The translations under genes and the position numbers were made by a program. From positions 1 through 48,306 of the IMG/VR virus record IMGVR_UViG_3300001528_000120: a stretch of DNA of 48,306 nt. One strand, written 5' to 3'. The notes below the pieces were generated by a model. That model worked only from the letters and a program-made list of their open reading frames with translations, did not search any database and was not told where the DNA came from. The first letter of the stretch is position 1. Each line of letters starts with the position of its first letter. This DNA comes from a virus. Shown in pieces: positions 4,627 to 23,262 of the stretch.

Positions 4627-4863
4627 TTAATCTTTCAGTGCTGATTTCAGTAATTTACCAAACATTACGGTAAATACTGTACCACAGCATACAGTGCCCA
4701 AGCCGTATAACCAAACATTGCTTGCATCGTGGTCTCTGATCGCAATAATGAGCTGCGCCATTGACGCTGTGCAACCAACAAAGGTTGCGGTCATGAGTGT
4801 TGCCGCACCAACGAAAATGGCGATTACCAGCAAGACCACCAAAACACGTTTCTTAATGCTCAT
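4627..4863 (-). CDS. Small membrane protein (2 TM)
   Basis: AGGAGG ribosome-binding site before the ATG at 4863 (MSIKKRVLVVLLVIAIFVGAA...). Two hydrophobic segments. Confidence 0.6.
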   Translation of the reverse strand: MSIKKRVLVVLLVIAIFVGAATLMTATFVGCTASMAQLIIAIRDHDASNVWLYGLGTVCCGTVFTVMFGKLLKSALKD

Positions 4864-5125
4864 TGTCAGTGTCCTCCTTTTCATCATAAGCATCGTCTAC
4901 CACAAAAAAGGTGAGGGTAAGTTTCTTGTTTGACAGTACGCCTACCAACAGCCTCATGCCAGCAAAGAAGTTGTAGCCGCCTACCAGCAAGCACGCTGCG
5001 CCAAACATGTTTACCAAAAAATTGGTGGAGAGCAGCTCGTTGAAGCCCGCCGCGAACAAGTAGCAACCAACGACTACCACGAAAATTGATCCGACGGCGG
5101 CGAGAAATCGCTTGAATTTTTCCAT
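4853..5125 (-). CDS. Small membrane protein (about 3 TM)
   Basis: GGAGG ribosome-binding site 8 nt before the ATG at 5125 (MEKFKRFLAAVGSIFVVVVGCYLF...). Confidence 0.6.
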   Translation of the reverse strand: MEKFKRFLAAVGSIFVVVVGCYLFAAGFNELLSTNFLVNMFGAACLLVGGYNFFAGMRLLVGVLSNKKLTLTFFVVDDAYDEKEDTDNEH

Positions 5126-5208: not shown

Positions 5209-5657
5209 CAGTAATATGCACAAACTCCTTTCATCTGCTATAAAGTTTTTTGGAAGGTGTCACGCACTTTGTCACGCATTTCTATTAAATGAAAGGTGCT
5301 GTGACAAAGTATGTGACACCCATTTGGCTATATATTAGCGCGTAGGGTGTGCTATTTTCGTAGCATTTGGGAAAAGTGTCACAGCGTCACGTACTTTTTC
5401 CTTATATCTTTTATATAAACTTGAAAGAGTTGCAGCAACATTGCTTTATATATAGAAAAGTTTTTTATATAAAAAGTACGTGACACTTGTGACACCCTTG
5501 CTGTAACTCATCAAATTTGTTAAGGAAAATGAGCTGAAATGCTGTGAAATAGCGGTTAAGTGGGGTTAAAAGTTCAAATCGAGGTGTCACGTACTTTTCC
5601 AAAAGTGTGTGACACTTGGGAAAAGTGTGTGACAAGCTCAAAAAGTGTGTGACAGGG
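5209..5657. repeat. Array A: GTGACA-box iteron/operator array with AT-rich quasi-palindrome; inverted homologue of 21489-21950
   Basis: AAAAGTGTGTGACA occurs verbatim at 5601, 5621 and 5641, with an inverted copy at 5584-5597. Nested box palindromes at 5257-5319 and 5376-5495. No credible ORF. Confidence 0.85.
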
Positions 5658-5659
5658 TG

Positions 5660-5866
5660 TTATTTACTGTGCTGGTCAGACCCACTGTACTGGTCGGAAT
5701 GACTGGGGTAGTCCATCCACAGCTGAAATTTGACGCAACAATCGAAACACATGTCTACATTGTCGTGGTCTAAAGCGTGGTAGGCGTTCTGGTAATACTT
5801 TTCGAGAAGGTTAAAATTGAGACCGGTGAACGTCTTACCACAACGGTCACAGATAAACGCTTTCAT
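5660..5866 (-). CDS. Small zinc-ribbon protein
   Basis: AGGAGG ribosome-binding site before the ATG at 5866 (MKAFICDRCGK...CFDCC). Two CxxC pairs. Confidence 0.6.
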   Translation of the reverse strand: MKAFICDRCGKTFTGLNFNLLEKYYQNAYHALDHDNVDMCFDCCVKFQLWMDYPSHSDQYSGSDQHSK

Positions 5867-5939
5867 GTTCAATCCTCCTGATACTCTGTCGGAGCGGGTT
5901 TGTTTCAGCATTCCTCGCAACTCTGGTTACTGTCGCATT

Positions 5940-6125
5940 CTATGTTGTCAACGCCAAAAACGTTTCGGACACAGGTACTTGGCTCTCCGCAGGGGTCGCG
6001 CCGTGCGTCCGGAAACTTTTCCAAGTAAACTTCCATTCGGGTTTTCGGCTTCTTAACAGACCAATACCGTGGCAATGCTCTTTTATAGTTACAACGGCAT
6101 TCCAAAGGTCTTTCTTGTTACTCAT
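5940..6125 (-). CDS. Hypothetical small protein; the alternative frame 5905-6105 cannot be excluded
   Basis: ATGA coupling with the upstream 52-aa ORF at 6122-6125 (MSNKKDLWNAV...). Confidence 0.35.
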   Translation of the reverse strand: MSNKKDLWNAVVTIKEHCHGIGLLRSRKPEWKFTWKSFRTHGATPAESQVPVSETFLALTT

Positions 6126-6280
6126 TTGTTTCTCCCTTCCAGTAATGCGCCACCCATAGCGAGCAGCAGGACTCCTACAATACAAGCGGCTACTGTACCA
6201 AGCGTGGAGTACACCCACGCGATAATCGCTGATACGAAACCAACGATAGCCAAGAACACAAGTAAAACTACCAAGCACAT
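6122..6280 (-). CDS. 52-aa two-TM membrane protein, below the ORF-track size cut-off
   Basis: AGGAGG then ATG at 6280. Translation: MCLVVLLVFLAIVGFVSAIIAWVYSTLGTVAACIVGVLLLAMGGALLEGRNK. First gene after promoter module P4. Confidence 0.55.
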   Translation of the reverse strand: MCLVVLLVFLAIVGFVSAIIAWVYSTLGTVAACIVGVLLLAMGGALLEGRNK

Positions 6281-7103: not shown

Positions 7104-7384
7104 CAGATAGCACCTCCAAACATAGGCGGCTGGTTTTCCTTCTCAAGCTCCAAGAGGTACTGTGCGTACCACTCAGCCTTATCCAGATCGGTCTGGTTCT
7201 GCGTGGTGTTGTACCGATACCGGTACTTAAACACGTTGCAGCGGCAGAAGGCTGCCACATCAGACTTTCCAAACAGCAGGCACATCTGGTCGATGCACTC
7301 CATGCCACCCTGCTCGTTGTAGTGAGCGGGGTGGTTGACCTTTTCATCGTAGACCTTCTGTGCGTCTGCTTCCTCGTCAGTCAT
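7103..7384 (-). CDS. DUF3310-like protein
   Basis: Motif VNHPAHYN...GMECID, which I recognise as typical of the DUF3310 family. The ATG at 7384 overlaps the nrdD stop. Confidence 0.55.
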   Translation of the reverse strand: MTDEEADAQKVYDEKVNHPAHYNEQGGMECIDQMCLLFGKSDVAAFCRCNVFKYRYRYNTTQNQTDLDKAEWYAQYLLELEKENQPPMFGGAI

Positions 7385-8981
7385 GATTCCCAGTGTTCTC
7401 AGTTCCATAGTGATGTACTCCTTCCAAGTGATTCTTGCCCAATACTCTCATGTGATTACCAGTGTGGGCTACACGGTCATCCAGTTCAGCACGCTTACCA
7501 TCGTTCCATTTGTTGGTAGCACCAACCAAGTAGCCCGTGATGCGCTGGATAAAGTCGATGTTGTGACCACCACACACAGGGCATTCGTTGATGTCAGCGT
7601 CAGCCGTTTCCCAACCGCAATCCAAGCAACGACCGCGAGTGTGGTTGATAGAGCCGTAACCAGCGTTTTTGGCGTGCATACCCACTACAAACTGCTCGAC
7701 TGCCAGCGGGTTCTTGGCAGCATCGCCGTCAAACTCAGCGTAGACGATGTGACCACCCTTGGTCAGTTCGTGGTACGGTGCTTCCACACACAGCTTCTTG
7801 TACATGGTGCACTTATACCAAACAGGTACGTGGTTACTGTTGGTGTAGTAGTCCTTGTCAGTGACGTGCTCCACGATACCAAAATCCTCACGGTCTTTTG
7901 GTACAAATTTACCAGACAGACCTTCTGCCGGAGTGGCAAAGCACGAGTAGTTGAGGTCGTATTTGTCAGAGTAATACTTGGCAAGGCGGTTGATTTCACC
8001 AACGATTTTCAAACCAAGCTGTTGTGCTTCTTCGGATTCGCCGTGGTGATGTCCGGTCAACACGATAAGTGCTTCTGCCAGACCAATAAAACCGATGCCC
8101 AGCGTGCCGTGCTTGAGCACTTTTTCCAACGTGTCATCGTCTTTCAGCTTTTCACAACCCTTCCACATCTTGCTCATGAGCAGCGGGAACTGGTACTTGT
8201 GTGCAGAGCACTGACTCAGATAGCGGTCACGCAGCTGGTTAGCCACCAACTCACCATAGATGTCCAAGTAGGTGAAGAAAAGTTCCAACTCCCCATCAGG
8301 AGTGCTGGAATCTCGCTTTGTCATGAACGCCAGCCTTACCAAATTGATAGTGGTGAAAGAAAGATTACCTCTACCAACGCTGGTTTTCATACCAAACCTG
8401 TCCTCAAACACGCGAGTACGGCATCCCATGGTTGCAGGCTCGTACATGTATCGCTCAGGGTCATCCGCTCTCCACGCTTCGTGCTGGTTGTAGGTGGCAT
8501 CCAAGTTCTCAAAGTTTGGAAAGAAACGTCTGGTTGTGACACGGCAAGCCAGCTTGAACAGGTCGTAGTTCGGGTCACCCTCAAACAGATTCACACCCTT
8601 CTTGAACTTGAAAATCTGAATCGGGAAAATAGCCGTTTCACCATCACCAACACCCTGTTCGGTGGAGAGTAACAGTTCCTTCATGACGCAGCGACCCTCA
8701 GCCGATGTATCCGTACCATAGTTGATGGACGAGAAAACGGTCTGATTGCCCGCTCTGGAATGCATATCATTCATGTTGTGGATGAATCCTTCCATTGCTT
8801 GATGTACTCTACGCACTGTAGCCGCCATACACTCTTTCTGCAAAGGCTCTACGCTTTGTGCGTAGTAGTCATCCACATGTCCGAGGGGTGTAACACCCTT
8901 GAGGGCACATTCTTCCTTGTAAGTAAGGTAAACGTAGGGTGCAAGGTAGAAGTCAAAGGCTGGGATAGCCTGCCCACCCAT
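7377..8981 (-). CDS. nrdD: Anaerobic ribonucleoside-triphosphate reductase, 3' exon
   Basis: GGQAIPAFDFYLAPYV, NMNDMHSRAGNQTVFSSINYG, Zn ribbon CLDCGW...CPVCGG and glycyl-radical motif RITGYL. Confidence 0.85.
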   Translation of the reverse strand: MGGQAIPAFDFYLAPYVYLTYKEECALKGVTPLGHVDDYYAQSVEPLQKECMAATVRRVHQAMEGFIHNMNDMHSRAGNQTVFSSINYGTDTSAEGRCVMKELLLSTEQGVGDGETAIFPIQIFKFKKGVNLFEGDPNYDLFKLACRVTTRRFFPNFENLDATYNQHEAWRADDPERYMYEPATMGCRTRVFEDRFGMKTSVGRGNLSFTTINLVRLAFMTKRDSSTPDGELELFFTYLDIYGELVANQLRDRYLSQCSAHKYQFPLLMSKMWKGCEKLKDDDTLEKVLKHGTLGIGFIGLAEALIVLTGHHHGESEEAQQLGLKIVGEINRLAKYYSDKYDLNYSCFATPAEGLSGKFVPKDREDFGIVEHVTDKDYYTNSNHVPVWYKCTMYKKLCVEAPYHELTKGGHIVYAEFDGDAAKNPLAVEQFVVGMHAKNAGYGSINHTRGRCLDCGWETADADINECPVCGGHNIDFIQRITGYLVGATNKWNDGKRAELDDRVAHTGNHMRVLGKNHLEGVHHYGTENTGNHD

Positions 8982-9817
8982 CCCTTTCGGGACGGACTAT
9001 ATCATACCCTTCACCTTCAAGTGGTAAGGGTCAGCGCACTTCGGATAGTGTCAATCTCTATCCTACTCTACTAAGTGCTACACTCCCTTGTGCGGAGTTC
9101 GCCTTTTCGATAGTCTCTTGACCTTCGTTTTCAAGTATCTCTGTTATTTGATGAACGACAGAACCTTTCTTTTTGTAGAACAAATCATACAGTGTTGGTC
9201 GTGGTACATGTAGTTGCTTCGACAACTCTTTCATAGTACCAGTGACAGTTAAACCGTTTATAAATCGCACTGTGAAAAACCTCTCTTTTCGCACAACCAA
9301 ACCGCTTTTCCAAGCGTGCTTGGAGTTGTCACGCTGAGTGCAAAATTCCAAGTTTTCTTTTCTGTTGTCGGTTTTGCAACCGTTTATATGATTTATTACT
9401 TCGTAAGGTTCGTTTCTTATGAACGCAAGAGCGATTATCTTGTGCACGGTTACTTTAACCTGTCGATTTGTCACCTTCTCGTTCAAAGAAACGTATCTGT
9501 ATCCGTTTTTCAATGTGGACTGCGACTTCACTTTACCAGTGGTCGTGTTTATTATTTGTCCATCATCAGTAACGGAATAACAGTCTGAAATATTCCCTAA
9601 TGAAAATAACGAGTTTACTTTAATCATTTGGTCTCCTTTCTCTAGGAGACACTTGAAAACGCTTGGCACAGGATTGATATGGACGAATCTTTCCCTGTTA
9701 GCCGATAGACTATTGACCATTTCCTGTCATTACTATCCGTTCTATCGACACCCTGCTGACAAACAGGTTCACGCTGTTTTCGACAATCATTTCTGATTGA
9801 AGGTACAGTTATCTATA
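8982..9817 (-). mobile_element. Group I intron interrupting nrdD (boundaries accurate to about 10 nt)
   Basis: The nrdD reading frame breaks after ...LQTVQNEM and resumes at GGQA. Core-like elements UCAGCAGG (9762-9769) and GAUAUAGUCCG (8993-9003). Carries a free-standing endonuclease ORF with its own ribosome-binding site. Confidence 0.75.
9058..9627 (-). CDS. Intron-encoded HNH homing endonuclease (NUMOD4-like N-terminus, HNH_3 core, C-terminal HTH)
   Basis: AAAGGAG ribosome-binding site before the ATG at 9627. Motifs YSVTDDGQII...GYRYVSL and INHINGCKTDNRKENLEFCTQRDNSKHAW. Confidence 0.8.
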   Translation of the reverse strand: MIKVNSLFSLGNISDCYSVTDDGQIINTTTGKVKSQSTLKNGYRYVSLNEKVTNRQVKVTVHKIIALAFIRNEPYEVINHINGCKTDNRKENLEFCTQRDNSKHAWKSGLVVRKERFFTVRFINGLTVTGTMKELSKQLHVPRPTLYDLFYKKKGSVVHQITEILENEGQETIEKANSAQGSVALSRVG

Positions 9818-10429
9818 CATTTCGTTCTGGACTGTTTGCAATGAGATGGCAGCCATAGTAGCAGCGGACTCGATGCGCTTTGCGCCACGATTGGCAGCAT
9901 GGTTGGCACGGAAACCAGTCAGCACCTTGTCGATAGGATGCTGTAAGCAGTTCACGGCACGCATGGCGTAGTAGTCCAAGTCATGTACGTGGATGATGTT
10001 GTCCTTCATAGCCTGCAACACTTCGTCTGACAGCAGGTTTTCTTTGGCGTACTGCTGTGAAGCAATGCTACCAAACTTGTACATCATGCCCGCAGGAGTG
10101 TAAGCATTCATATTGGCATTGTCTCTGGACAGGTTACTTCCCTTTACGTCCACAATCTGAGAGATCAGGATGTTGGCATCACGACCACGCATCTTGTTTC
10201 GATGGTCACGATACTTGATATACCTTTTTGCGACATCCGGTTCGTACTCCATAAGAGCACGTTCCACGTTGTCCTGAATCTCCTCTACCTCGATGTCTCC
10301 ACTGACTCTGAGAGAGATTTCATCAGCTACCTTCTTGGCTGTGTGCTCAGTCGCACCTGCTTTCTGGCACGCTACCACAATCTTGGTGGGGTCAAATTCG
10401 ACCCTTGCACCATCGCGCTTAATTACCAT
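9809..10429 (-). CDS. nrdD: Anaerobic ribonucleoside-triphosphate reductase, 5' exon (ATP-cone plus N-terminal part)
   Basis: AAGGAGG before the ATG at 10429. MVIKRDGARVEFDPTKI is an ATP-cone. The frame runs into intron stop codons after QNEM. Confidence 0.85.
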   Translation of the reverse strand: MVIKRDGARVEFDPTKIVVACQKAGATEHTAKKVADEISLRVSGDIEVEEIQDNVERALMEYEPDVAKRYIKYRDHRNKMRGRDANILISQIVDVKGSNLSRDNANMNAYTPAGMMYKFGSIASQQYAKENLLSDEVLQAMKDNIIHVHDLDYYAMRAVNCLQHPIDKVLTGFRANHAANRGAKRIESAATMAAISLQTVQNEMYR

Positions 10430-10637
10430 GTGTACCCTCCTTACCAAACATATCATCCAGCAGCTTAATTGCCCGCTGTTCGTCCATCGGGACTCCCAAA
10501 TACTCCACAACTGGTGTTGGGAAACCCATATAATGACCCGTTACGTTGAACTCTACTGAGTAGCAGAGACCAAGCTCCTCTAATCGGTCAACCACACCAC
10601 AGGTCTGTCCTACGTCTTTGTGAATCAAGAACTGCAC
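10419..10637 (-). CDS. Hypothetical protein
   Basis: 72-aa ORF whose stop overlaps the nrdD start. No motif recognised and no CxxxCxxC, so it is not NrdG. Confidence 0.5.
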   Translation of the reverse strand: MQFLIHKDVGQTCGVVDRLEELGLCYSVEFNVTGHYMGFPTPVVEYLGVPMDEQRAIKLLDDMFGKEGTHGN

Positions 10638-10640
10638 TAT

Positions 10641-10976
10641 TTACTCCTTACCCGTCCATGTTGGATAACTGTCTCCAAACTTCTTTGCCATAGCAGCTAC
10701 CTGAATGGCTTCCATAGCCAAGAAAGATGCTCTGCGATAAATCTCTCTAGCAGCGATGACCGCTGTTCCGTTGGAATTGTTCTTCACGCTCTTCCAAAGA
10801 TCGTTGGTGATGCGTTCGCACCCTGCCATGTCGTGCATGGCTTCCTCAACTTCTTCTTTGAGAATCGCGTAGCCCTCGTGGGCAGTGTGAAAGAACTCGC
10901 CATACTCATTTGCTGCTCGTTCCTGCTCGTTCTTCACGAGGTCTGAAACACCGTTTACAATTTCTCTTCCGATCAT
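10641..10976 (-). CDS. Hypothetical all-alpha protein (MazG-like acidic helix motif possible)
   Basis: AAGGAGG before the ATG at 10976. Contains HEGYAILKEEVEEA. Confidence 0.5.
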   Translation of the reverse strand: MIGREIVNGVSDLVKNEQERAANEYGEFFHTAHEGYAILKEEVEEAMHDMAGCERITNDLWKSVKNNSNGTAVIAAREIYRRASFLAMEAIQVAAMAKKFGDSYPTWTGKE

Positions 10977-11496
10977 CGGCTTCCTCCTTGCTTAAATAGC
11001 CCTTTTGCAGCAGTTTCTTCTGCAACTTTCGTTTAATTTCTGATACTCGTTGGTGGGTTATACCAAGTACATCCGCGATTTCTCGCTGACCGTATCCCTG
11101 TGCCAACATTTCAGTTACAACCTTTTCTCTATCACTCATCCAGTCTGGTAATTCAACCGACCACGGATGGTATTCCGGTGCTGCTACAGCCGCGTAGCGG
11201 TCTAGCACTTTGTCATGCATACCGCTAGTCCGTAAGTCAAGCGTGTTATCGAGTGACAGCGGCACGACACCGTCTGGATTATGACGTTTGTTGGTTCTCC
11301 ATGACCTGTAAACCGCCCATCGCATCAGATTTACCAAGTGAGTTTGGTTGTCTTTGACAGTACCTTCGTACTTGTCCTTGGCTTCTGCCAGTGCCAGACA
11401 CATGGTCTGGAACAAGTCCTCATCACCAACATAGTTTGGAAAAAACTTATGCATCGTCCAGCGTACCAGCTTGAGATCATCATCTTTAATTTCCAA
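10906..11496 (-). CDS. Phage-encoded sigma-70-family (ECF-like) sigma factor
   Basis: TTG start 7 nt after AGGAGG. Region-2-like N-terminus and region-4 HTH (MLAQGYGQREIADVLGITHQRVSEIKRKLQKKL). Confidence 0.65.
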   Translation of the reverse strand: MEIKDDDLKLVRWTMHKFFPNYVGDEDLFQTMCLALAEAKDKYEGTVKDNQTHLVNLMRWAVYRSWRTNKRHNPDGVVPLSLDNTLDLRTSGMHDKVLDRYAAVAAPEYHPWSVELPDWMSDREKVVTEMLAQGYGQREIADVLGITHQRVSEIKRKLQKKLLQKGYLSKEEADDRKRNCKRCFRPREERAGTSSK

Positions 11497-11568: not shown

Positions 11569-13473
11569 TTACATTGCCGATTTGGTCATTTTGACGTAAT
11601 AACGCTTGCGAGATTTACCCTCTCGCCGCTGCTGAATCTCCAAACCAAAACGTTTACGGATTTGTTTGGAAAACTCAATGTTGGTCACAGGCTGCAAGTT
11701 GTTGGTATAGCAGAACCCCGTGTACTTTTTGTAAACCACGTCAGTCGGGTTATACAGGTATTCTTCTTCCTCCAAATCATCAAAAAACAAGATGATTGGA
11801 TTGTTGGACACCTCAAACTCCTTGATCTCAGACTCCACGATCTCACAGTGTGTAAACGCTTCGTTTGCCAAAATATCTCGCAGGTGGGAAATGCACTTGA
11901 CGATCAATGCTTCAATAACAGGTTCTTCACGCAGCTTGTACTTGATAAACGGGTCAAAATCTGGGTCTTTCTTGGAAAAAGAAGCATTGAACGGGATGAC
12001 AATCATACGATCAACCAGTGCCCCTGTATCCTTACCTCTACCAAGACGTGGTAATGAGTTGGCAGAGAAGTAAAACTTGGCTCTGGAAGTCATTGTGATA
12101 GGCTTCTGGTACTTCCTGTTGACAGTCATAGCTTCACCAGATACAACCTTCTTGAAGATGGCAGTGTTGGACATAAACTCGTCCGAAATATCGTCACCGA
12201 TATTGGCAAGTTTACCTGTGATTTCAGCCGTTTTGAACTCCGAACCAACGTCTGCCAAGTCCAAGTTGGAAACGTTATCATCACCAAGCATGGTACTCAG
12301 CAAGTCCAAGAAAGTGGATTTACCGTTATGCTTATCACCAAGCAGGAAGAACGACTTTCGCAGCTCGTTTCGTCTTAACAGGCTATACGACAACGCTTCG
12401 TACAACAACGCTTCCACGCTTGGATTCTGGCAAGCCAGCTTCTTGATGGTCTTGTCCAGCAATGCTGACTGGGCGTTCGGTCGATAATTGTGCGGAATCT
12501 TGTTGGTGATTACCTTGTCAGGTGTGAAGTCGCTGAACTCGTTGGTGATGATGTTCAGAACACCGTTCTTAAACGCCACGTACTGTACATCAGACTCTTT
12601 GTAGCTGTTCAGACCAATCAGAGGGAAATACGCCAACACTTCTGCACGCTGGTTTTTCTTGAGGTTCGGGATTTCCTCTACCATTGCAGACTCCAACGCT
12701 TCTTCACCAGACACATAGATACCGTTGCGGTAAATGTGCATGTCTCCATCAATGCGAATGATATGCTTGTTGGCAACCATATATCTGGCAAACGAATCGA
12801 ACAGGAAACCGCCCTTCTCCGTGAAGAACTGCTGTTTGCTGAACGCTTCGTCCCGTGTGATAGTGGCTAGCTCAGACTCACTCAGCTTGTCTTTCAGAAT
12901 ATACTGGTTGATGAGAGAAAGCGTTTGCTTAACCTCTGTGATACTCAGACCAGCCTTTTGCAAGGGGAGTATGTAACTGAACAAGGTTTGGTTGCGCCCA
13001 TCCCCGTCACCAAGACCAACCAAATCAATTTTGGTGGTGACGGGCTTGAGATAAGCAGGGATGGTTTCGTATACCTCAGTGTCATACAACACCTCTCGCA
13101 GCTGACCATCTCGTTTAAGTACCTCATAGCTACAATTACAGCCTGCTTTAATGTCGGCAGTAAGACCGATAGCCAGCTTTTTGTGATTGCCGTTTCTGGC
13201 AATCTGACCGTTATTCCAAAACAAGAAATGCTTACCCCTTGCCGTGCCGATAACCTTACACTTGACCGCAAGTGACTTGACGATACGGAGCAGCGTATCA
13301 GACTGCTCCATGTCATCAATGTCAACCATCACGGCATTATCGTCCAGAACGCCACCATACGAAGGTACTTTCTCTACTGCTTCCAGTGTTAACAGGTCGG
13401 ACGCATCCTTTCCTTTGAAGGGCATCAGTGACCTTTTACCGTTTACTGGGATATATCCTTTGTACAATGACAT
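11569..13473 (-). CDS. Primase-helicase (prim-pol N-terminal domain plus D5/P4-type NTPase)
   Basis: 634 aa. AVMVDIDD acidic motif at the N-terminus and Walker A LLGDKHNGKST in the C-terminal half. Confidence 0.8.
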   Translation of the reverse strand: MSLYKGYIPVNGKRSLMPFKGKDASDLLTLEAVEKVPSYGGVLDDNAVMVDIDDMEQSDTLLRIVKSLAVKCKVIGTARGKHFLFWNNGQIARNGNHKKLAIGLTADIKAGCNCSYEVLKRDGQLREVLYDTEVYETIPAYLKPVTTKIDLVGLGDGDGRNQTLFSYILPLQKAGLSITEVKQTLSLINQYILKDKLSESELATITRDEAFSKQQFFTEKGGFLFDSFARYMVANKHIIRIDGDMHIYRNGIYVSGEEALESAMVEEIPNLKKNQRAEVLAYFPLIGLNSYKESDVQYVAFKNGVLNIITNEFSDFTPDKVITNKIPHNYRPNAQSALLDKTIKKLACQNPSVEALLYEALSYSLLRRNELRKSFFLLGDKHNGKSTFLDLLSTMLGDDNVSNLDLADVGSEFKTAEITGKLANIGDDISDEFMSNTAIFKKVVSGEAMTVNRKYQKPITMTSRAKFYFSANSLPRLGRGKDTGALVDRMIVIPFNASFSKKDPDFDPFIKYKLREEPVIEALIVKCISHLRDILANEAFTHCEIVESEIKEFEVSNNPIILFFDDLEEEEYLYNPTDVVYKKYTGFCYTNNLQPVTNIEFSKQIRKRFGLEIQQRREGKSRKRYYVKMTKSAM

Positions 13474-14125: not shown

Positions 14126-14303
14126 GTGTATCCTCCCACGTAACGTGTGCTTCACTCTCTGCTTCAGCCAAACCCTTGAATAAGTTGGCTTTCATATTGT
14201 AAATAGCACCTTCGTGCTCACACGCTTCATCCTCTGCGATTGTTTCCCGCGTTGCTTCGTTGATGATGTCAGTGATCTCTGCCAAATCATACGTTTTAAT
14301 CAT
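14112..14303 (-). CDS. Hypothetical acidic small protein
   Basis: 63-aa ORF. Its start overlaps the polymerase stop. Confidence 0.5.
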   Translation of the reverse strand: MIKTYDLAEITDIINEATRETIAEDEACEHEGAIYNMKANLFKGLAEAESEAHVTWEDTHDCN

Positions 14304-16006
14304 TACTTTCCTCCCTCAAAATCCTTGATTCGCTTCCATGCCAAATCAATGTAATACTGACGGTCAAGACGATCTGGTACACCCACGTCATCCAAACAAC
14401 CGTTCTCGATAAAGCATTTGTCCGGTGTGTTACCAAACTTGTCTTTCTTCTCACCTTTGTCGGTCAGCTTGCATTTCAGCAAACGACCATCGTTCGGATG
14501 ATTGGAAGCGAAAACTCGATATGCTTTTTGGTCATACCGCTTGTTCTGTGGGGATTCCTCATGTTCCACCCACTCATACTTTGGTGAGAGTTTGACAATC
14601 TTCTGAAACTCAATCAGCTTGTCAACATCCCAAACCGTTCGTTCGGGCAGTACACCTTCGATAAAGTACGCTTTGATTGCTTTGTTGACAATCGGCAAAT
14701 CGTAATCCAGCTTATTCAGCTTTTTTACATATGCACCTTTGCACTCCAACGAGCCGTCTTCAAATACAGCGATGTAGTTGTTCACATCCTTCTGGATAAT
14801 CTTGGTCATACGGTCATAACCAAGACCCATACCAGTGCGATCTTCCCATTCTTTACAGATAGCCTTTACCTCGTCCTCGTTGCCATGCAACTTGACGATC
14901 AGACCATCCGTGTTGGACTGGATGATTTGACAGTGATTCTCCAACCGCTCAATCAGGTCTGTGAGAAGCACTTGACCAAACACACAAACGTTGTTGGCAG
15001 ACCGTGGGTCAAACAACGGATTGAACCTGTCCTTCATAGCACCGTATGTACTGTTCAAAACGATCTTCAATGCGTTGGCACGCGGGTCTTTCTTCTTTTT
15101 GAACTTGATACGGTCATCCTTGATTTCACGATACTTCTCAACGGAAGCACCGCTGCGGCTCATGCAATACTCTGGGTATCGGAGCATCAGAGATGGATAG
15201 TACGAGTTTACGTCCACGTGCAGGAACTCTCCCTCAGCGATATAGTTTGGTATAGCACCATGGATACCGCCTGTTCCATACACGTGCGGTACACCAGCAA
15301 TGGTTGTTTCCAGCTTGGTGTCGTAGTTCCAACCGTTTCGGAAGTAATCAAGTACCTGTGTGTACTTGTCGATGTGCATCGTTGGTGGAAATGAAATAGC
15401 GAACTCGTCTGAGTGATGGCTCTTTCTCGCACCAAGAATGATAGCTGCCAACTGCGCTTTAGACTTACTCATGTAGGTCATCGGCAGGTCAAACATCTTC
15501 ATAAGACCAACATAGCTATCAAACTCGCTCTTACGCTCCATGAAAACTTTGATAGTGGCAAGTACGTCATGTTCATTGTACTTGAGCACTTCATCGATCA
15601 TGTCCTGCGTAAACTCACCATCATAGTCAAAGGGAATCGTGGTCTCACGGATGTCCATGCCACTGAACGCTTCTAGTGTCTTAAGACCGTTAAAACCGAT
15701 CATGCAGTCGAAGCTGTTCACTTTGGCGTTGCGCAGGTCTGTACTAAGCTCCCAACCCTTCCGTTTTTTGTGGATGATCCACTCGTTCATGACCCAAGGG
15801 TCAATTCCGACCAAGATAGCCTTGAGGATGTAATCATCGTAGCTTCTTGAATTGAAGCCGATATACAGTTCTTTGCAGTGATGGTAATGGAACTCTCTCA
15901 ACCGCCAAGGGTTGTTTACAATGACTTCCTTTGTTTTGGTAATCGGATTGATAATAGTAACTGTCCAAAGGTTTTTGAAAACCTCAAAGTCATAGAAATT
16001 GAGCAA
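14303..16006 (-). CDS. Family B DNA polymerase with 3'-5' exonuclease domain (compact, 567 aa)
   Basis: TTG start after AGGAGAG. Exo motifs YDFEV, NSRSYDDYIL and YNEHDV. Pol motifs VDVNSYYPSL, KIVLNSTYG and SNTDGLIV. Confidence 0.8.
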   Translation of the reverse strand: MLNFYDFEVFKNLWTVTIINPITKTKEVIVNNPWRLREFHYHHCKELYIGFNSRSYDDYILKAILVGIDPWVMNEWIIHKKRKGWELSTDLRNAKVNSFDCMIGFNGLKTLEAFSGMDIRETTIPFDYDGEFTQDMIDEVLKYNEHDVLATIKVFMERKSEFDSYVGLMKMFDLPMTYMSKSKAQLAAIILGARKSHHSDEFAISFPPTMHIDKYTQVLDYFRNGWNYDTKLETTIAGVPHVYGTGGIHGAIPNYIAEGEFLHVDVNSYYPSLMLRYPEYCMSRSGASVEKYREIKDDRIKFKKKKDPRANALKIVLNSTYGAMKDRFNPLFDPRSANNVCVFGQVLLTDLIERLENHCQIIQSNTDGLIVKLHGNEDEVKAICKEWEDRTGMGLGYDRMTKIIQKDVNNYIAVFEDGSLECKGAYVKKLNKLDYDLPIVNKAIKAYFIEGVLPERTVWDVDKLIEFQKIVKLSPKYEWVEHEESPQNKRYDQKAYRVFASNHPNDGRLLKCKLTDKGEKKDKFGNTPDKCFIENGCLDDVGVPDRLDRQYYIDLAWKRIKDFEGGK

Positions 16007-16042
16007 TCACGTTCTCTCCTTCCTCGTTCACCCAAAAGATTT

Positions 16043-16066
16043 GGTAGGAGCAGTTACGCTCCTACC
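16043..16066 (-). terminator. Stem-loop terminator after the DUF669 gene
   Basis: 9-bp stem GGTAGGAGC/GCTCCTACC with 6-nt loop and flanking T/A runs on both sides. Confidence 0.6.
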
Positions 16067-16078
16067 ATCTTTTCCAAA

Positions 16079-16549
16079 TCAGAACTTCTGTACAATGTCG
16101 TACTCCTTGAAGCCCTTATCGTTCTCATGGTAAGCAAGCTGGTACTCAGCCTTGCCATCACCAATAGCGTCAAAGACCGCCTTGACGGTTTCCTCGAAGT
16201 GCTCATCGAACTTGACCTCGATACCGGATTCCAGAGAATCAAGCAGCTGGACAGCGTTGCGAATCATGAAAGCAGTAGCGCGAGTACCCTTCGGAGACCA
16301 CAAACGCTTGGTAGCGAACAACAGCTGACCAGCCAGTTCATCGTGGTTGATGATCTTGAACCACACTGCCAGCTGCGGCTTGCCCTGATAGTCACCCTCG
16401 AACGGGCACTCCTCAACGGCGCACTTGGTAACACGGACTTCGTAGTCACCATACGGCACTTCCTTGCGCTCCACGTTGGACGCAGATACGTCAGCAACTT
16501 CTGCTTCGATAGCGGACATGTCTCCGAACATTTCCCAGTTGATAGCCAT
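16079..16549 (-). CDS. DUF669-like protein (putative ssDNA-binding partner of Sak4-type recombinases)
   Basis: 156 aa with motif VPYGDYEVRVTKC...GKPQLAVWFKI. Follows the Sak4-like ATPase gene. Confidence 0.55.
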   Translation of the reverse strand: MAINWEMFGDMSAIEAEVADVSASNVERKEVPYGDYEVRVTKCAVEECPFEGDYQGKPQLAVWFKIINHDELAGQLLFATKRLWSPKGTRATAFMIRNAVQLLDSLESGIEVKFDEHFEETVKAVFDAIGDGKAEYQLAYHENDKGFKEYDIVQKF

Positions 16550-16604
16550 AATAAAAACTCCTTTATTCTTCGTAGGACTTTTCGTCCTCGTTTATTGTGT
16601 CATC

Positions 16605-16650
16605 ATTATAATACCCCGCGGGGCATTTTACAATTGGCAAAATAGCCAAA
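16605..16650 (-). promoter_or_regulatory. Conserved 46-nt promoter module, copy P2
   Basis: Minus strand: TTTGGCTATTTTGCCAAT-TGTAAA-N16-TATAAT. The spacer contains the perfect palindrome CCCCGCGGGG. Confidence 0.6.
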
Positions 16651-16657
16651 AAATAGG

Positions 16658-18190
16658 TTATTTTCCTGTGGATTCTGCTGTATCGAATGCTTCCGACAGT
16701 GCTTCCCATGTAAGAGGAATGGAATCCAGTTTGGTTTTCAGACGCTCGCCACCAAACACCATGTCATCTGCCTTGAACTCGATAGTACGCTCATCACCAT
16801 CAGCGACAACACGACCAACGAGACCAACCATGCCAGCGATCTTGGTGGAGACCTTTTCCTGAATGTTCGGACGGATAGAGGTTGCGCTTTCACCAGACTT
16901 TTTGGTAATGTCGCGGGAAGCGTCCTCGTGAGACAACAGGATGATGTTTTCGTAGTCCAAGTTCATCAGACGGCGAATCTGAGAATAGAACTCAGTGCGC
17001 ACCTTGTCCCATGCGCGGAAATTGTCATCAGATTCATGGGTAATGTGCAGCTTGTCAAACATATACAAACGACAAGACTCGTACAAGTCCTCCAACAAAT
17101 CGACCACAATGGTCTTGAAGGTGTTCTGTTTCTTTTCCAGTTCGTCCAGCGTTTCCTTGAACACTGCCCAAGCCAGCTTCTTCTTGACGATGCGACCAGT
17201 GACTTCCACATCATCTTTGATTGGCACGAAAGGTGCGGTGACGTAGACAGCGTTGCCGTCCGTGTTCAGCATCAGCGGGTCTGGCGCGTGGTCAGCCAGC
17301 GTGGTCTTGCCCGTAAACGGTCTGCCATACAACCAGATGGTACGCTTGGTGGGCTTCTCAGCGGTTCTTCTCTCGTTCTTCGGTAATACCATATCGTTCC
17401 TCCTATAAATCATGTAGTCAGTCTCACCGTTGGACTGACAATACTCTTTGAAATCACACCAATCACAAAGACGGGTTGGGTTCTTTGGAAAATCAGCACC
17501 CTTCTCGGCTTCGGTGAGAAATGCTGTTTTAGCTTGGAACTGCCGCACGGCTTCTGGCTTATACGGCACTTCTAGCACTGTAATGTCTTTGGACTCCATC
17601 TCCGACAACAACCGCTGTCGGAAGGTCATCGGAGTCTCCGTCCGTTTCTGCCGAATCATTGTTTTCGGCACAAAGACGTATTGTAAACGACCAATCTTGA
17701 TGTCTGGTCGCATTTGGGTTAAGTAGTGGGCGTAAATAGACAGCTGCGGGGAGTCTCTATAGCCGTCCACGTTGTTTGAAAACTTGAAGTCGTAAATGTC
17801 GTAGACAGTATCGTGGTGATGTGAGTAATCATCGTGGACAATAGTTCTGTGGCATTTTACTAACAGGTCGATGTAGCCAATAAAGTCATCGGTCTTTACT
17901 TCAATTTCATGCTCACCTTTTGGTAGGAGAGCCTTAACCTTTGGAATCCAGTATTCCAGCTGGATTTGCCAAGCAATGTGGCGGTCATCAATTACATAGT
18001 AGTGTGACAGGTATTCCCGCACACCTTCTTCTACAGTGGTCTCAATACCCTTGTGGAGTCCAAGACCAAGATAGAGAGCGTTGTTCGGCTCTTGGTCGGG
18101 CAAGGTAGTCAGCTTGTCCTTGTACTTGAGCTTGTACTTATACGGACACTTGGTGGCGCACTCAACGCGGCTATGGCTGAATCTGGTCAT
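16658..18190 (-). CDS. Fusion of a Cas4-like PD-(D/E)XK nuclease (Fe-S Cys motif) with a Sak4-like AAA_24 ATPase
   Basis: N-terminal CATKCPYKY plus CDWCDFKEYC (C...CX2CX5C). C-terminal half carries Walker A LYGRPFTGKTTLA. Confidence 0.7.
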   Translation of the reverse strand: MTRFSHSRVECATKCPYKYKLKYKDKLTTLPDQEPNNALYLGLGLHKGIETTVEEGVREYLSHYYVIDDRHIAWQIQLEYWIPKVKALLPKGEHEIEVKTDDFIGYIDLLVKCHRTIVHDDYSHHHDTVYDIYDFKFSNNVDGYRDSPQLSIYAHYLTQMRPDIKIGRLQYVFVPKTMIRQKRTETPMTFRQRLLSEMESKDITVLEVPYKPEAVRQFQAKTAFLTEAEKGADFPKNPTRLCDWCDFKEYCQSNGETDYMIYRRNDMVLPKNERRTAEKPTKRTIWLYGRPFTGKTTLADHAPDPLMLNTDGNAVYVTAPFVPIKDDVEVTGRIVKKKLAWAVFKETLDELEKKQNTFKTIVVDLLEDLYESCRLYMFDKLHITHESDDNFRAWDKVRTEFYSQIRRLMNLDYENIILLSHEDASRDITKKSGESATSIRPNIQEKVSTKIAGMVGLVGRVVADGDERTIEFKADDMVFGGERLKTKLDSIPLTWEALSEAFDTAESTGK

Positions 18191-18417
18191 GGTACTGAAT
18201 CACCCTCCAACACAATCACTGCGTCAGGGTAAATAACTACTTCCGCGTCCCCATTAAAAGACCCAACACCAGTACCATCAAGTTTGACAGCATTGACCTC
18301 TAGTCCATCAAGCGAGTGAGTGGCAATCCTGAGCCACAACTCGCCGCTGCTCTCGAAAACTTCGCTAACCAATACACGTTGGAACGGTTCGTAATTCATC
18401 GTGTGCTGTACTTTCAT
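18187..18417 (-). CDS. Hypothetical protein
   Basis: 76-aa ORF with AGGAGG ribosome-binding site and ATGA-type coupling on both sides. Confidence 0.5.
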   Translation of the reverse strand: MKVQHTMNYEPFQRVLVSEVFESSGELWLRIATHSLDGLEVNAVKLDGTGVGSFNGDAEVVIYPDAVIVLEGDSVP

Positions 18418-19489: not shown

Positions 19490-19669
19490 TTATTGGTGAT
19501 TATGTACAGGATTCATGTACTGCTCGAATCGCTCCCGTGAAATCCAGTAACGATACGAGTTTGGTGACATTTCCACCGCCACGCCAAACGGGAACTTGTT
19601 CTGGCGCAACCCCATTCTCAGGAATTGGATAGAAACTCCCATTGCTTTGGCAGCTTCCTCAACGCTCAT
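19490..19669 (-). CDS. 59-aa HTH_17/excisionase-like DNA-binding protein, below the ORF-track cut-off
   Basis: Hand translation: MSVEEAAKAMGVSIQFLRMGLRQNKFPFGVAVEMSPNSYRYWISRERFEQYMNPVHNHQ. Overlaps the upstream stop by 11 nt. Confidence 0.55.
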   Translation of the reverse strand: MSVEEAAKAMGVSIQFLRMGLRQNKFPFGVAVEMSPNSYRYWISRERFEQYMNPVHNHQ

Positions 19670-19877
19670 CTTCTGCGAAAAAGACGTTGCCCATCAAACG
19701 TACACCCAGCCCACATGCTTCTCCGATCTTCCAGCACTCATCAAGAGTCGGAAGTTGGTAGCCACGAAGGATACGGGTCACTTTGCACGGATGCCAACCC
19801 ATTCGTTCGCCAAACGCTTTACGTGTACCAAACTTACCCAGTACATAGTCGTTCAGAGCTTTGTAATCAACGTGCAT
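19659..19877 (-). CDS. Small HTH (XRE/Cro-like) protein
   Basis: AAGGAGG before the ATG at 19877. MHVDYKALNDYVLGKFGTRKAFGERMGWHPCKVTRILRG... Confidence 0.5.
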   Translation of the reverse strand: MHVDYKALNDYVLGKFGTRKAFGERMGWHPCKVTRILRGYQLPTLDECWKIGEACGLGVRLMGNVFFAEDER

Positions 19878-19889
19878 TTTTCTTCCTCC

Positions 19890-19906
19890 TTTCATTTGAA
19901 ATGAAA
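19890..19906. promoter_or_regulatory. 17-bp palindrome TTTCATTT-G-AAATGAAA just upstream of the HTH gene ribosome-binding site (operator candidate)
   Basis: 8-bp perfect arms. A second inverted repeat, GCATCGACC (19925-19933) / GGTCGATGC (19969-19977), lies further upstream. Confidence 0.45.
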
Positions 19907-19995
19907 ACTTACGCAATAAAAATTGCATCGACCAAAAAATCAGAGCGAACCACGCTCATATAAAACGGTCGATGCGATAGTTTTCCAAAACAGGC

Positions 19996-20064
19996 GGGGA
20001 GCAGACGGAGTTAAACCGCCATCTAAGGTCATGAGCCTTTACTCTGTCGTTGAGCTATGCTCCC
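19996..20064 (-). tRNA. Non-canonical tRNA-like element with CAT anticodon loop
   Basis: 7-bp acceptor GGGAGCA/TGCTCCC, loop CTCATGA and T-arm GGCGG/CCGTC. Lacks D-loop GG and T-loop C56, has an A-A mismatch in the anticodon stem, and no encoded CCA. Confidence 0.35.
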
Positions 20065-20142
20065 AAACGAACCTCCCCCGAAGGAGCACGCTTGCAATCG
20101 TGTTGGTTTCCGGTTCAACCGGACTTACCAAGAGGTTTATAC

Positions 20143-20218
20143 TGGCACTCTGGGGTGGACTCGAACCACCGACCGTCTGAGTAACAATCAGATGCGCTAC
20201 CAACTGCGCCACCAGAGT
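20143..20218 (-). tRNA. tRNA-Asn: tRNA-Asn (GTT)
   Basis: Hand-folded cloverleaf: ACTCTGG/CCAGAGT acceptor, GCGC D-stem, TCTGA-TTGTTAC-TCAGA, GGTGG-TTCGAGT-CCACC, encoded CCA. 76 nt. Confidence 0.85.
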
Positions 20219-20752: not shown

Positions 20753-21019
20753 TTAAATCGCCGCAAGCGCAGTCTCAATCGAGTTGGACAGTGTGACTTT
20801 ACCAGTGCCGGAATGCAGTCCTGCCGGAACAGTGTAGCTCTCAGCCGTCATACCATCAATGGTTGCTGCGACAGCACCACGGTTTTCGATATTACCAACA
20901 GCAGATACGCAATCTTCCAGCTTGGCGGTTGACTCAGTTACCAAACCAAGACCAATGAGATTGGTGCGCAGTGTGTCACGCTGGTTACTGATTCGAGTGA
21001 TCTCAGATGCAATACTCAT
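20753..21019 (-). CDS. Fibre-like small protein carrying the SYTVPxGxHxGxGKV motif
   Basis: AAGGAG ribosome-binding site. SYTVPAGLHSGTGKVTLSN matches SYTVPQGYHDGSGKVAIS in the 46079-46651 product. Confidence 0.55.
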   Translation of the reverse strand: MSIASEITRISNQRDTLRTNLIGLGLVTESTAKLEDCVSAVGNIENRGAVAATIDGMTAESYTVPAGLHSGTGKVTLSNSIETALAAI

Positions 21020-21031
21020 AAAACAAGCTCC

Positions 21032-21193
21032 TTATATTTCACGGAGCAGCGTTTCAACTTCTCCCGCTAGTTGATACACTGCGTTGGACGATACTGGCAA
21101 CGGGTTGTCCGACTCGACCAGCTCTGTAATATCCACTGATATAACACCGTTGTCGATGATGATGCCCATTCCAGCTTCCAGTTCTGTTGCCAT
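21032..21193 (-). CDS. 53-aa fibre-motif protein, below the ORF-track cut-off
   Basis: Hand translation: MATELEAGMGIIIDNGVISVDITELVESDNPLPVSSNAVYQLAGEVETLLREI. Starts 17 nt after tRNA-Lys. Confidence 0.45.
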   Translation of the reverse strand: MATELEAGMGIIIDNGVISVDITELVESDNPLPVSSNAVYQLAGEVETLLREI

Positions 21194-21209
21194 GGTAAAA
21201 CCTCACTTG

Positions 21210-21285
21210 TGGTGCGCCATGCGGGGCTTGAACCCGCGACCCCCAGATTAAAAGTCTGGTACTCTACCAACTGAGTTAATGACAC
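21210..21285 (-). tRNA. tRNA-Lys: tRNA-Lys (TTT)
   Basis: Hand-folded cloverleaf: GTGTCAT/ATGGCGC acceptor (2 G-U pairs), ACTC/GAGT D-stem, CCAGA-CTTTTAA-TCTGG, GCGGG-TTCAAGC-CCCGC, encoded CCA. 76 nt. Confidence 0.85.
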
Positions 21286-21370
21286 AGGGGTGATGCCCCA
21301 GTTACGGGGCTTGAAGTTGCACTACGAGGATGTCGTGCGGGGTAAGACCGGAGAGTTATCTTACATGTTT

Positions 21371-21417
21371 ATTATACGAAAAAACGTTCGGTTTCTCTAG
21401 GTGTAATAATCACCAAA
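21371..21417 (-). promoter_or_regulatory. Degenerate sixth copy of the promoter module, upstream of tRNA-Lys and the early operon
   Basis: Minus strand: TTTGGTGATTATTACACCTAGAGAA-N16-TATAAT. Shifted by 1 nt relative to P1-P5 and lacks GCGAAT. Confidence 0.4.
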
Positions 21418-21440
21418 AATGAAAGAATTTTTTTGACATG

Positions 21441-21449
21441 GTATAATAA
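21441..21449 (+). promoter_or_regulatory. Extended -10 element TGgTATAAT on the plus strand, facing array B and the integrase
   Basis: tttttgacatggtataataag. The TTGACA here is too close to act as its -35. Confidence 0.35.
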
Positions 21450-21488: not shown

Positions 21489-21950
21489 GGTGTCACACAC
21501 TTTTGGCGGTTGTCACGCACTTTTCGGCTGTCACGCAAAAGTATGTGACACTTTGGTTTGAACTTTTTTGGTCAATAAGCCGATGCTTTGTGGTGTTTAC
21601 AGCTGTTTTGGTGAACTTTCAAAGGCACTTAGTTGAAATCTGTCACAGCGTCACAGACTTTTCTATATAAAAAACTTTCTATATATATAACGATGTTGCA
21701 GCAACAACATGTCAAAAAATATAGTACAATATAAGTCTGTGACATCTGTGACAAAATTTCCGGCACAGACGAAATCGCCAAAAACGCTGATTTTGCCCTG
21801 TTTTTGCAACTTTTTAGGGCAAAACGTGTCACACACTTTGCAAAAGTACGTGACAAAGTACGTGACAAGTGCGTGACACCTTCCAAAGTTTTTGACCATT
21901 TTTTCCGAGAGTTTGTATAGCTTGCACAAAAATGCATAAATATGAATGCT
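21489..21950. repeat. Array B: inverted, colinear, diverged copy of array A (5209-5657)
   Basis: 20-nt exact match: 5250-5269 ttggaaggtgtcacgcactt equals the reverse complement of 21867-21886. TGTCACACACTTTT at 21491 and TGTCACGCACTTTT at 21511 (20-bp spacing). Quasi-palindrome at 21641-21753. Confidence 0.85.
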
Positions 21951-23068: not shown

Positions 23069-23136
23069 TTTTAGAGCATTTTGGTATACTACGTGTATAT
23101 TACCGTGCCCAACACTACCGAATATGGGACAACAAA

Positions 23137-23182
23137 AAGACCGCCAACCCTTGATAATACTTGGGTTCACGGTCTTTCTTTT
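23137..23182. terminator. Bidirectional terminator between the convergent integrase and tail-collar genes
   Basis: AAGACCG...CGGTCTT outer stem with inner AACCC/GGGTT. T-run tttctttt on plus and A-run upstream (U-run on minus). Confidence 0.6.
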
Positions 23183-23262
23183 CATTGCCAAACTATCCAT
23201 TATATGTTCCCAAATGCTTGATTGGCAAGGGTTCTCAGGGCAGTTTGTAGCTTACGTGCGAC

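Follow-up and report, generated by a model that had tools for sequence, protein, structure and literature searches.

The stretch of DNA analysed here (the window) is the full 48,306 nucleotides of the virus record IMGVR_UViG_3300001528_000120. Its first 76 bases (1-76) recur at 48231-48306, and consequently the window is a circular assembly holding a complete phage genome of approximately 48.2 kb. Nearly all of its genes lie on the minus strand. Our subject is an array of short repeated boxes (array A) that occupies a gap between two of these genes, together with a second, inverted copy of it (array B) and a primase-helicase that is the candidate initiator. An earlier note on this DNA, made from the sequence, placed the gap between a gene ending at 5125 and another starting at 5660. 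Read on the minus strand, 5125 belongs to the start codon of one gene (4853-5125) and 5660 is the stop end of the other (5660-5875). The note's view that the gap contains no credible open reading frame (ORF) is borne out: no ORF within it exceeds 58 amino acids (aa), and in three close relatives an independent gene caller places no gene in the equivalent gaps or within the arrays. Array A is composed as follows:

5257-5654, minus strand: array A, a three-module iteron array with TGTCAC/GTGACA cores; read 5' to 3' on the minus strand, the order is module 1, module 2, module 3
5584-5654: module 1 of array A, in which AAAAGTGTGTGACA is repeated exactly at 5601, 5621 and 5641 (a 20-bp phase), with an inverted box at 5585-5598
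5376-5495: module 2 of array A, the core origin-like unit
5399-5471: the AT-rich centre of array A, 73 bp with 78% A+T, a candidate DNA-unwinding element
5257-5320: module 3 of array A, direct boxes at 5258-5271 and 5270-5283 facing the inverted cores GTGACA (5301-5306) and CAAAGTATGTGACA (5305-5318)

Where at least 11 copies of the box had been claimed, we count 12 hexamer cores: TGTCAC at 5258, 5270, 5377 and 5585, CGTCAC at 5385, and GTGACA at 5301, 5313, 5480, 5489, 5609, 5629 and 5649. Nine of the 12 reach at least 12 of 14 matches to the full 14-bp box, TGTCACRYACTTTT. The three verbatim copies of AAAAGTGTGTGACA that the note reported are exact and stand 20 bp apart. The inverted copy beside them is also present, although one base away from the 5584-5597 first given and with two changes of the R/Y type. 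In module 2, the left boxes (TGTCAC at 5377-5382 and CGTCACGTACTTTT at 5385-5398) are separated by the AT-rich centre from the right, inverted boxes (AAAAGTACGTGACA at 5472-5485 and GTGACA at 5489-5494). The centre contains CTTTATATATAG-type motifs, which are common to relatives, and a small palindrome, GTTGCAGCAAC, at 5429-5439. The nested palindromes described earlier can be recognised as inverted repeats at 5256-5275/5301-5320 and 5383-5399/5471-5487.

This density of boxes is far above that of shuffled sequence, a comparison that had been proposed as a check. With the threshold set at 11 of 14 matches, array A contains 10 boxes and array B contains 9, and the remaining 47 kb has another 9. 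In 100 dinucleotide-preserving shuffles, the densest 400 bp held a mean of 2.3 boxes and a maximum of 4. With up to three mismatches, the 14-mer has 22 matches against 8.96 expected from shuffles, and 19 of these 22 fall within the two arrays. No DnaA box was found within one mismatch in either array gap. Promoter-like sites are no commoner inside array A than in shuffles, and its boxes do not overlap promoter-like hexamers. The gap had no match by blastn (distant mode) against 50,697 phage records, and a pattern scan of the IMG/VR collection for two phased boxes also gave no match.

The second array and the genes that matter for the argument are:

21490-21880, plus strand: array B, in which the three modules of array A recur in inverted orientation
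11569-13473, minus strand: primase-helicase of 634 aa, with matches to PriCT_1, D5_N, the DUF5906 superfamily 3 (SF3) helicase and Pox_D5; the proposed initiator
11572-11928, minus strand: C-terminal domain of the primase-helicase (residues 516-634), a predicted winged helix that co-varies with the box in relatives
14303-16006, minus strand: family-B DNA polymerase (PolB), within the array-bracketed module and used as the anchor for finding related phages
22046-23068, plus strand: tyrosine integrase (int), just outside array B, its N-terminus matching Arm-DNA-bind_4

Aligned with the reverse complement of array A, array B is identical to it in 76% of columns. The identical columns are concentrated in boxes and in the AT-rich centre, and the spacers have diverged. 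Array B consists of module 1 (21491-21550), module 2 (21641-21753), whose AT-rich centre lies at 21663-21730 with GTTGCAGCAAC at 21695-21705, and module 3 (21827-21878), and its core count is similar to that of array A. In both arrays, module 1 comprises three direct boxes and one inverted box, and module 2 comprises two boxes, a centre of approximately 70 bp at 77-78% A+T containing GTTGCAGCAAC, and two inverted boxes. Module 3 differs in the orientation of its boxes, with two facing two in array A and one facing three in array B. From the end of array A to the start of array B is approximately 15.8 kb, and the arrays thus bracket an early/replication module. Besides the primase-helicase and PolB, this 16 kb encodes tRNAs, a small helix-turn-helix (HTH) protein, an ERCC4-like nuclease, a PD-(D/E)XK/AAA_24 protein, a Thy1-like ORF, a sigma-like protein and a split nrdD. 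Both arrays stand upstream of outward-reading genes and have the same orientation relative to those genes.

Arrays of this kind recur in related phages. Searching with PolB as anchor gave 3 and then 80 IMG/VR loci, 31 of which had enough coverage for an array scan. The primase-helicase has more than 5,000 homologs at E<=1e-30, and these were the source of the window's close relatives. All three close relatives (with primase-helicases 90, 80 and 73% identical) carry GTGACA arrays at the array-A position, and both of those whose contigs extend to the array-B position carry one there as well. Among the window's close relatives, box columns show a pairwise identity of 0.68-0.70, compared with 0.43-0.44 for the other columns, and the spacers diverge. 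More distant members of the clade (56% identity) have one distal array with a different box, either TTAACA or GTTAAA.

In the wider family, we scored an array where at least seven copies of one hexamer fell within 400 bp and the cluster lay up to 4 kb from the primase-helicase gene on its 3' side. This applied to 24 of the 31 loci with related PolB and primase-helicase genes. Many of these arrays abut the stop codon of the primase-helicase gene, and the distance between the two is -26 to a few hundred bp in many relatives. P4 (NC_001609) served as a positive control, and the same k-mer cluster scan recovers both its ori and its crr as annotated. Two isolates, Bacillus phage BMBtp15 and Staphylococcus phage PI-Sepi-HH2, carry one array directly after the primase gene. 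A second, upstream array of the same hexamer is present in 8 of the 31 loci, and in two more the upstream array consists of a one-base variant of the hexamer; the second arrays in these twin-array loci adjoin integrase or lysogeny genes. When twin arrays were compared in ten genomes (the window, seven IMG/VR loci and two close relatives), the inverted alignment was the better one in all ten, with a spacing of 11.7-17.5 kb between the twins. The box itself varies by lineage, its forms including TGTCACA, TGTAACA, TCTTGAAC, TCTGTTAC, TCTAGGACA, CATAAGACA, CTTGCACA, ATGTGTAAC and AAGTGTAG. The gene downstream of an array also differs among phages: int may be present or absent, and ArpU-like genes, small membrane proteins or terminase occur there. 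What stays constant is the link of the array to the primase-helicase gene and its recognition helix.

This distribution bears on the idea that the boxes are arm-type sites of the tyrosine integrase, the arrays being attP-like or inversion sites. Array B does adjoin int, whose product has the arm-binding type of N-terminus noted above, and two inverted copies could in principle support inversion. Yet two close relatives (L322 and L326) keep an array at the array-B position without a neighbouring integrase, having tail and lysis genes there instead, and the 80 loci related through the integrase (at no more than 42% identity) do not contain the box. These two facts lead us to reject arm sites, which we regard as very improbable. 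Further, the single arrays of the isolates lie beside the primase gene and not beside int, the two arrays of the window are just 76% identical with diverged spacers, and by the usual layout attP would be expected 3' of int (23069-23262).

The primase-helicase is of a type already associated with iteron origins. Its sole match by phmmer against the PDB is PriRep5 of the Staphylococcus aureus pathogenicity island (SaPI) SaPI5 (7OLA; E 1.8e-33), covering residues 245-607 and thus extending into the C-terminal domain. A BLASTP comparison with the P4 alpha protein aligned the helicase core (E 6e-9, 21% identity) and left the N- and C-terminal parts unaligned. An AlphaFold (AF2) model of residues 516-634, built from a 61-sequence alignment, has a mean predicted local distance difference test (pLDDT) score of 85.9 and shows three helices followed by a beta hairpin. 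The nearest structures by Foldseek are RFX bound to DNA (1dp7; probability 1.0, TM-score 0.63 on the target), Orc1/Cdc6 bound to origin DNA, and PadR regulators. Pfam gives a weak, sub-threshold match to the RFX_DNA_binding winged helix at residues 568-623. The predicted recognition helix, NIEFSKQIRKRF, and the beta-hairpin wing map to approximately 11590-11682.

Boxes and protein change together. For this comparison the protein was cut into three segments in sequence order: the N-terminal part, then the C-terminal domain in two pieces, of which the second comprises the last 37 or so residues, with the recognition helix and wing. The primase-helicases of L285 and L286 are 98%, 100% and 76% identical across these three segments, and their array-2 iterons are TGTAAC and TGTCAC, respectively. 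In the recognition region the L285 and L286 types read F[G/S]REV[K/Q]KQGY[N/T]S[D/N][TV/ER]IR[V/I]. The array of L285 itself is incomplete at the contig end; between L286 and five TGTAAC-type phages, seven of eight aligned boxes in modules 1 and 2 differ, direct repeats included. Similarly, L269 is 86-89%, 87-91% and 50-55% identical to L282 and L293 across the segments, and its box is CATAAGACA where theirs is TCTAGGACA. L282 and L293, which share a box, are 89% identical in the last segment. Among all pairs with at least 80% identity in the N-terminal part, the recognition/wing segment retains 82.6% identity in same-box pairs and 69.2% in different-box pairs (Mann-Whitney p of approximately 1e-4, where the pairs are non-independent and represent about three independent switches). 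In the window's own clade, the four phages with GTGACA boxes all have NIEFSKQIRK in the helix, and the helices of L328 (TTAACA) and L329 (GTTAAA) are changed.

Changes of this kind also bear on whether the region might be a structured RNA or a set of functional DNA or RNA hairpins. It contains long inverted repeats, and a change from TGTCAC/GTGACA to TGTAAC/GTTACA would be compensatory in a stem. The direct boxes (the three at 20-bp phase, and tandems of GTGACAgaGTGACA) change in the same way, however, and these cannot pair with one another. Nor does Rfam report anything above its gathering or E-value thresholds on either strand of the array A gap, where it gives sub-threshold, generic long-hairpin models only. 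We find this explanation scarcely credible. Indeed, neither the gene calls in relatives nor Rfam reveals a protein- or RNA-coding signal, which the earlier note had named as a possible refutation, that would account for the region.

We consider it probable, with good but not high confidence, that array A is an element of the origin type and that its reader is the primase-helicase of the phage itself. The earlier note had weighed a replication origin, a partition site and a multi-operator switch, and had named the primase-helicase among several possible binders; anatomy, homology, and position and covariation in relatives point to the origin and to that protein, and the other two options are not supported. 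From these sequence comparisons we infer that the boxes are bound, that the centre melts and that an origin fires, at whichever of the two arrays does so. Array A would then be a cis-acting replication origin of the SaPI/P4 type, with the TGTCAC-core boxes as its iterons. These would be bound by the winged-helix C-terminal domain of the SF3 primase-helicase (11569-13473), and the inverted pairs of iterons on either side of the 73-bp AT-rich centre (5399-5471) may be where hexamers assemble. The assembled hexamers would melt this centre and load themselves, after which primase and PolB might begin synthesis. Modules 1 and 3, including the boxes at 20-bp phase, are probably extra cooperative sites that could raise the local concentration of initiator or wrap the DNA. 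Array B would most likely be one of three things: a second origin, an auxiliary site that, by analogy with P4 crr, loops to array A by way of the initiator common to both, or an initiator-bound, fork-stalling site similar to oriR of SPP1.

Several observations weigh against this interpretation. Three mosaic phages (L267, L275 and L287) combine an upstream array of TGTCAC cores with a TGTAAC-type winged helix, and two of them, L267 and L275, also have TGTCAC cores in module 3 of their downstream array. TGTCAC and TGTAAC variants of the core co-occur within single arrays too. Mosaics and mixed arrays together imply either that the domain tolerates C or A at this position, or that a second protein reads some of the boxes. 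In addition, because the recognition segment and the array are physically linked, block recombination could mimic covariation without any binding. For the protein, the Foldseek E-values are weak (the best is 0.078), and neither the origin-binding domain of P4 alpha nor the C-terminal domain of SaPI Rep appears among the top 50 Foldseek matches. For the locus, array A begins 5.9 kb past the stop codon of the primase-helicase gene and so is not adjacent to it, a distance explained by genes inserted in this clade (the sigma-like gene, nrdD and others). Array A corresponds in position to the primase-helicase-side (late-side) array that single-array relatives retain. The cumulative GC skew has no inflection at either array; it is negative along nearly the whole genome and merely flattens around the plus-strand int, which makes it uninformative on the origin. 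Lastly, many relatives carry a single array, which means that the twin is not essential to this phage family.

Some of these observations would suit a different explanation, in which the arrays are multi-operator regulatory sites for a phage transcription factor and perhaps draw the 16-kb early region into a loop. Candidate binders are the small HTH protein (19659-19928) and the sigma-like protein (10906-11496), or else a repressor, and the controlled genes would be int from array B and the operon reading from 5125 from array A. Consistent with this, both arrays precede outward-reading genes in the same relative orientation. Further, translations read in Clostridium-like relatives place the downstream array directly before a late activator gene of the ArpU/RinA-like or DUF1492-like kind, and the module-3 boxes beside this gene in L267 and L275 vary independently of the winged helix of the primase-helicase. 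Against it, the boxes do not overlap promoter-like hexamers, such sites in array A occur at shuffle frequency, and a divergent promoter-like pair (21371-21447) lies outside array B. Moreover, the genes downstream vary from phage to phage whereas the link to the primase-helicase gene and recognition helix is constant, and twelve sites around an AT-rich centre resemble an origin and not an operator. We judge regulation by operators to be unlikely as an account of the arrays, though less so than the integrase or RNA explanations.

Phased clusters of direct and inverted short repeats also resemble parC/parS arrays. On that reading the phage would be a plasmid-like prophage, with the arrays as its centromere-like sites for partition (parS/parC type). 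Neither the called genes of a close relative (within 10 kb on either side) nor the scanned ORFs of the window include a family of the ParA/ParM/TubZ or ParB/ParR type. The phage encodes an integrase, and the box covaries with the primase-helicase. Partition is, in our view, as improbable as the integrase explanation. A packaging (pac) site was ruled out, as the arrays lie far from the terminase genes.

An origin served by the primase-helicase finds its closest parallel in SaPIs and other phage-inducible chromosomal islands (PICIs). SaPI origins contain 6-12 penta- or hexanucleotide iterons just 3' of rep, bound by the C-terminal winged helix of Rep; a minimum of two iterons lie to either side of an AT-rich centre, and those of the two sides point in opposite directions (PMC9371898). 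The candidate initiator of the window is homologous to PriRep5 as an SF3 primase-helicase with a predicted C-terminal winged helix; the 12 short iterons of array A fall within the range of 6-12, with array B similar; module 2 of both arrays, with two opposed iterons on each side of an AT-rich centre, is an exact fit; the array lies just 3' of the initiator gene in most relatives; and the specificity of the box tracks the C-terminal domain. There are also differences. The host element is a complete 48-kb phage and not a satellite, and its array is 5.9 kb away from the initiator gene, while a SaPI origin is immediately downstream of rep. In the window the hexamer core sits within a 14-bp box that is conserved around most cores, two extra modules flank the central one, of which one is strictly 20-bp phased, and the whole element is carried twice, in inverted orientation.

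The satellite phage P4 offers a parallel for the twin arrangement; its layout is taken here from the annotation of NC_001609. P4 also has one primase-helicase with a C-terminal origin-binding domain (predicted in the window) and a homologous helicase core. Its two clusters of the same iteron, in both orientations and kilobases apart, bracket the early/replication (alpha) operon, and one of them lies beside int. In P4, however, the clusters differ from each other in architecture: crr is made up of two direct repeats of 120 bp, and ori has type-2 repeats in addition. The arrays of the window are nearly equivalent, inverted copies of one another, and both possess an AT-rich centre. The clusters are 4.7 kb apart in P4 and 16 kb apart in the window, and the N-terminal primase region of the window protein matches PriCT_1 and not the primase region of P4.

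The Bacillus phage SPP1 has two similarly organised sites, oriL and oriR, each with repeats and an AT-rich unwinding element, approximately 13 kb apart and bound by one initiator, G38P (PMC6316719). The second site has been proposed to stall forks and so trigger the switch from theta to sigma replication (PMC6316719). By analogy, a fork-stalling role similar to that of the second SPP1 site is plausible for array B. SPP1 is a Firmicutes phage with the same two-site organisation as the arrays of the window, but its initiator system (origin-binding protein, loader, DnaB-type helicase and host polymerases) appears unrelated, its oriL lies inside the initiator gene, and it is virulent. The replication genes identified in the window are the PriRep-like primase-helicase, PolB and the PD-(D/E)XK/AAA_24 protein, and no search was aimed at a G38P-type system.

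More generally, iteron plasmids and the lambda ori, with its O protein, have phased iterons beside a region of AT-rich DNA that unwinds, and the initiator that binds these iterons is that of the replicon itself. Their initiators are unrelated to the one proposed here, helicase loading proceeds via host DnaB, and their iterons are usually direct repeats of 17-22 bp, in contrast to the hexamer cores in both orientations of the window. Two further principles are known from iteron origins: the DNA-binding part of the initiator and the iterons are exchanged together as specificity cassettes, and the pairing of two iteron sets by the initiator (handcuffing) is a means of control.

We speculate, more tentatively, that the inverted arrays form one bipartite replicator and delimit the early/replication module in PolB phages from Firmicutes and the gut, a large family. 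This is possible but still doubtful. The shared initiator might pair or loop the two arrays, whether to license initiation (as for crr), to amplify the early module by fork trapping, or to switch from theta replication to concatemers (as for oriR). The arrays would additionally be joints for recombination, where phages swap lysogeny, replication and late modules, with recognition helix and iterons travelling jointly as a specificity cassette.

An iteron origin served by a PriRep/alpha-like primase-helicase is an already known kind of element. What is new is the three-module architecture of 14-bp boxes, the displacement of an array from its initiator gene, the clean natural swaps of specificity and, above all, the near-equivalent inverted twin that brackets the replication module and recurs in divergent lineages of a large phage family. 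Replication origins are seldom annotated in metagenomic phages. The combination of a PriRep-like primase-helicase gene with hexamer-core iterons, arrayed on its late side and having an AT-rich centre, is a recognisable signature that can be searched for in temperate phages of Firmicutes and the gut, a large family in which the primase-helicase has more than 5,000 homologs. The natural swaps (L285 against L286, L269 against L282) pinpoint residues of the winged helix against bases of the iteron, and are testable. The inverted twin extends the theme of P4 ori/crr and SPP1 oriL/oriR to another group of phages, and prompts the question of what function a second site bound by the initiator has. Candidate uses include decoys for phage-encoded resistance, vectors for gut Firmicutes, and anchors for replication-based estimates of activity from metagenome coverage.

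A number of side observations concern the arrays and their reader. The mosaics (L275, L267 and L287) can be compared with L286, the arrays in these phages lying at approximately 1200-1600 and 15500-18400: the TGTCAC-type upstream array of the mosaics comes from one lineage and downstream modules 1 and 2 from a TGTAAC-type lineage, which suggests that arrays act as recombination joints between genome modules. The GTTGCAGCAAC palindrome stands in the middle of the centre of both arrays and reads identically on the plus strand despite the inversion of the arrays. Close relatives have partly similar GC-containing cores, and GTTGCAGCAAC was not seen in the Clostridium-like relatives inspected. In L328, a stand-alone winged-helix protein of 76 aa (19603-19833), 30% identical to the C-terminal domain (E 2e-6), is encoded 1.5 kb before the iteron array of that phage, and could be a candidate regulator that competes for the iterons. 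A search of the window for a stand-alone paralog of this domain found none.

Other anchors and searches gave less. The integrase as anchor returned 80 related loci, as described above, and an exact look-up of it had no match; IMG/VR yielded no relatives for the 449-aa neighbour of array A; among PolB relatives, the closest (70-74% identity) lie on short contigs that end before the array positions; and a search with the C-terminal domain of the primase-helicase alone returned two fragments only. When GTDB genomes and JGI metagenomes were scanned with looser patterns, the matches were unrelated tandem repeats and, in Prevotella phage, an array of eight AAGTTTGTGACA copies. In the Prevotella-associated, phage-like contigs (L190 at 6043-6240; also L112, L101, L166 and L186), approximately eight AAGTTTGTGACA copies lie together in a gap of 200 bp. 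This cluster follows the 3' end of a primase-helicase-like ORF of 973 aa at a distance of 270 bp, the same gene-then-iteron layout, here in Bacteroidota. The resemblance of AAGTTTGTGACA to the box of the window is an artefact of how the search pattern was constructed, and it was not used as evidence.

Around array B, tRNA genes lie directly inside the array (Met and Asn at 19996-20218, Lys at 21210-21285). On our reading of the sequence, relatives have putative tRNA-like sequence in the same position (L322 at approximately 1100-1560, L328 at 1700-2800 and L329 at 640-1500). The divergent promoter-like pair (21371-21447) is just to the left of array B. Its minus-strand site, TAGAGA-17-TATAAT, points towards tRNA-Lys and the early genes, and its plus-strand site, an extended -10 (TGGTATAAT), would transcribe through array B towards int.

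Elsewhere in the window, nrdD, the gene for anaerobic ribonucleotide reductase, is split into an N-terminal part (9809-10510) and a C-terminal part (7377-8981), with an ORF resembling an HNH homing endonuclease (9058-9720) between them. No group I intron was called by Rfam at this locus (7377-10510). The gene is intact in L325 (695 aa, with a LAGLIDADG ORF downstream) and is called as two pieces in L322, with HNH ORFs between and after them. A motif distinct from the array box, the heptamer ATTTGCA/GTTTGCA, is dense at 2640-2760, within a gap at approximately 2480-2855, where there are about 12 copies, partly in tandem. Similar clusters of TGCAAA occur a few kb past, or just before, the equivalents of array A in relatives (L324 at 12263-12623, L326 at 20962-21072 and L328 at 20882-21309). 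Finally, an Rfam GP20-b RNA motif lies at 40827-40888 on the minus strand, upstream of the structural genes, with a score of 56.8 bits (gathering score 36.2).

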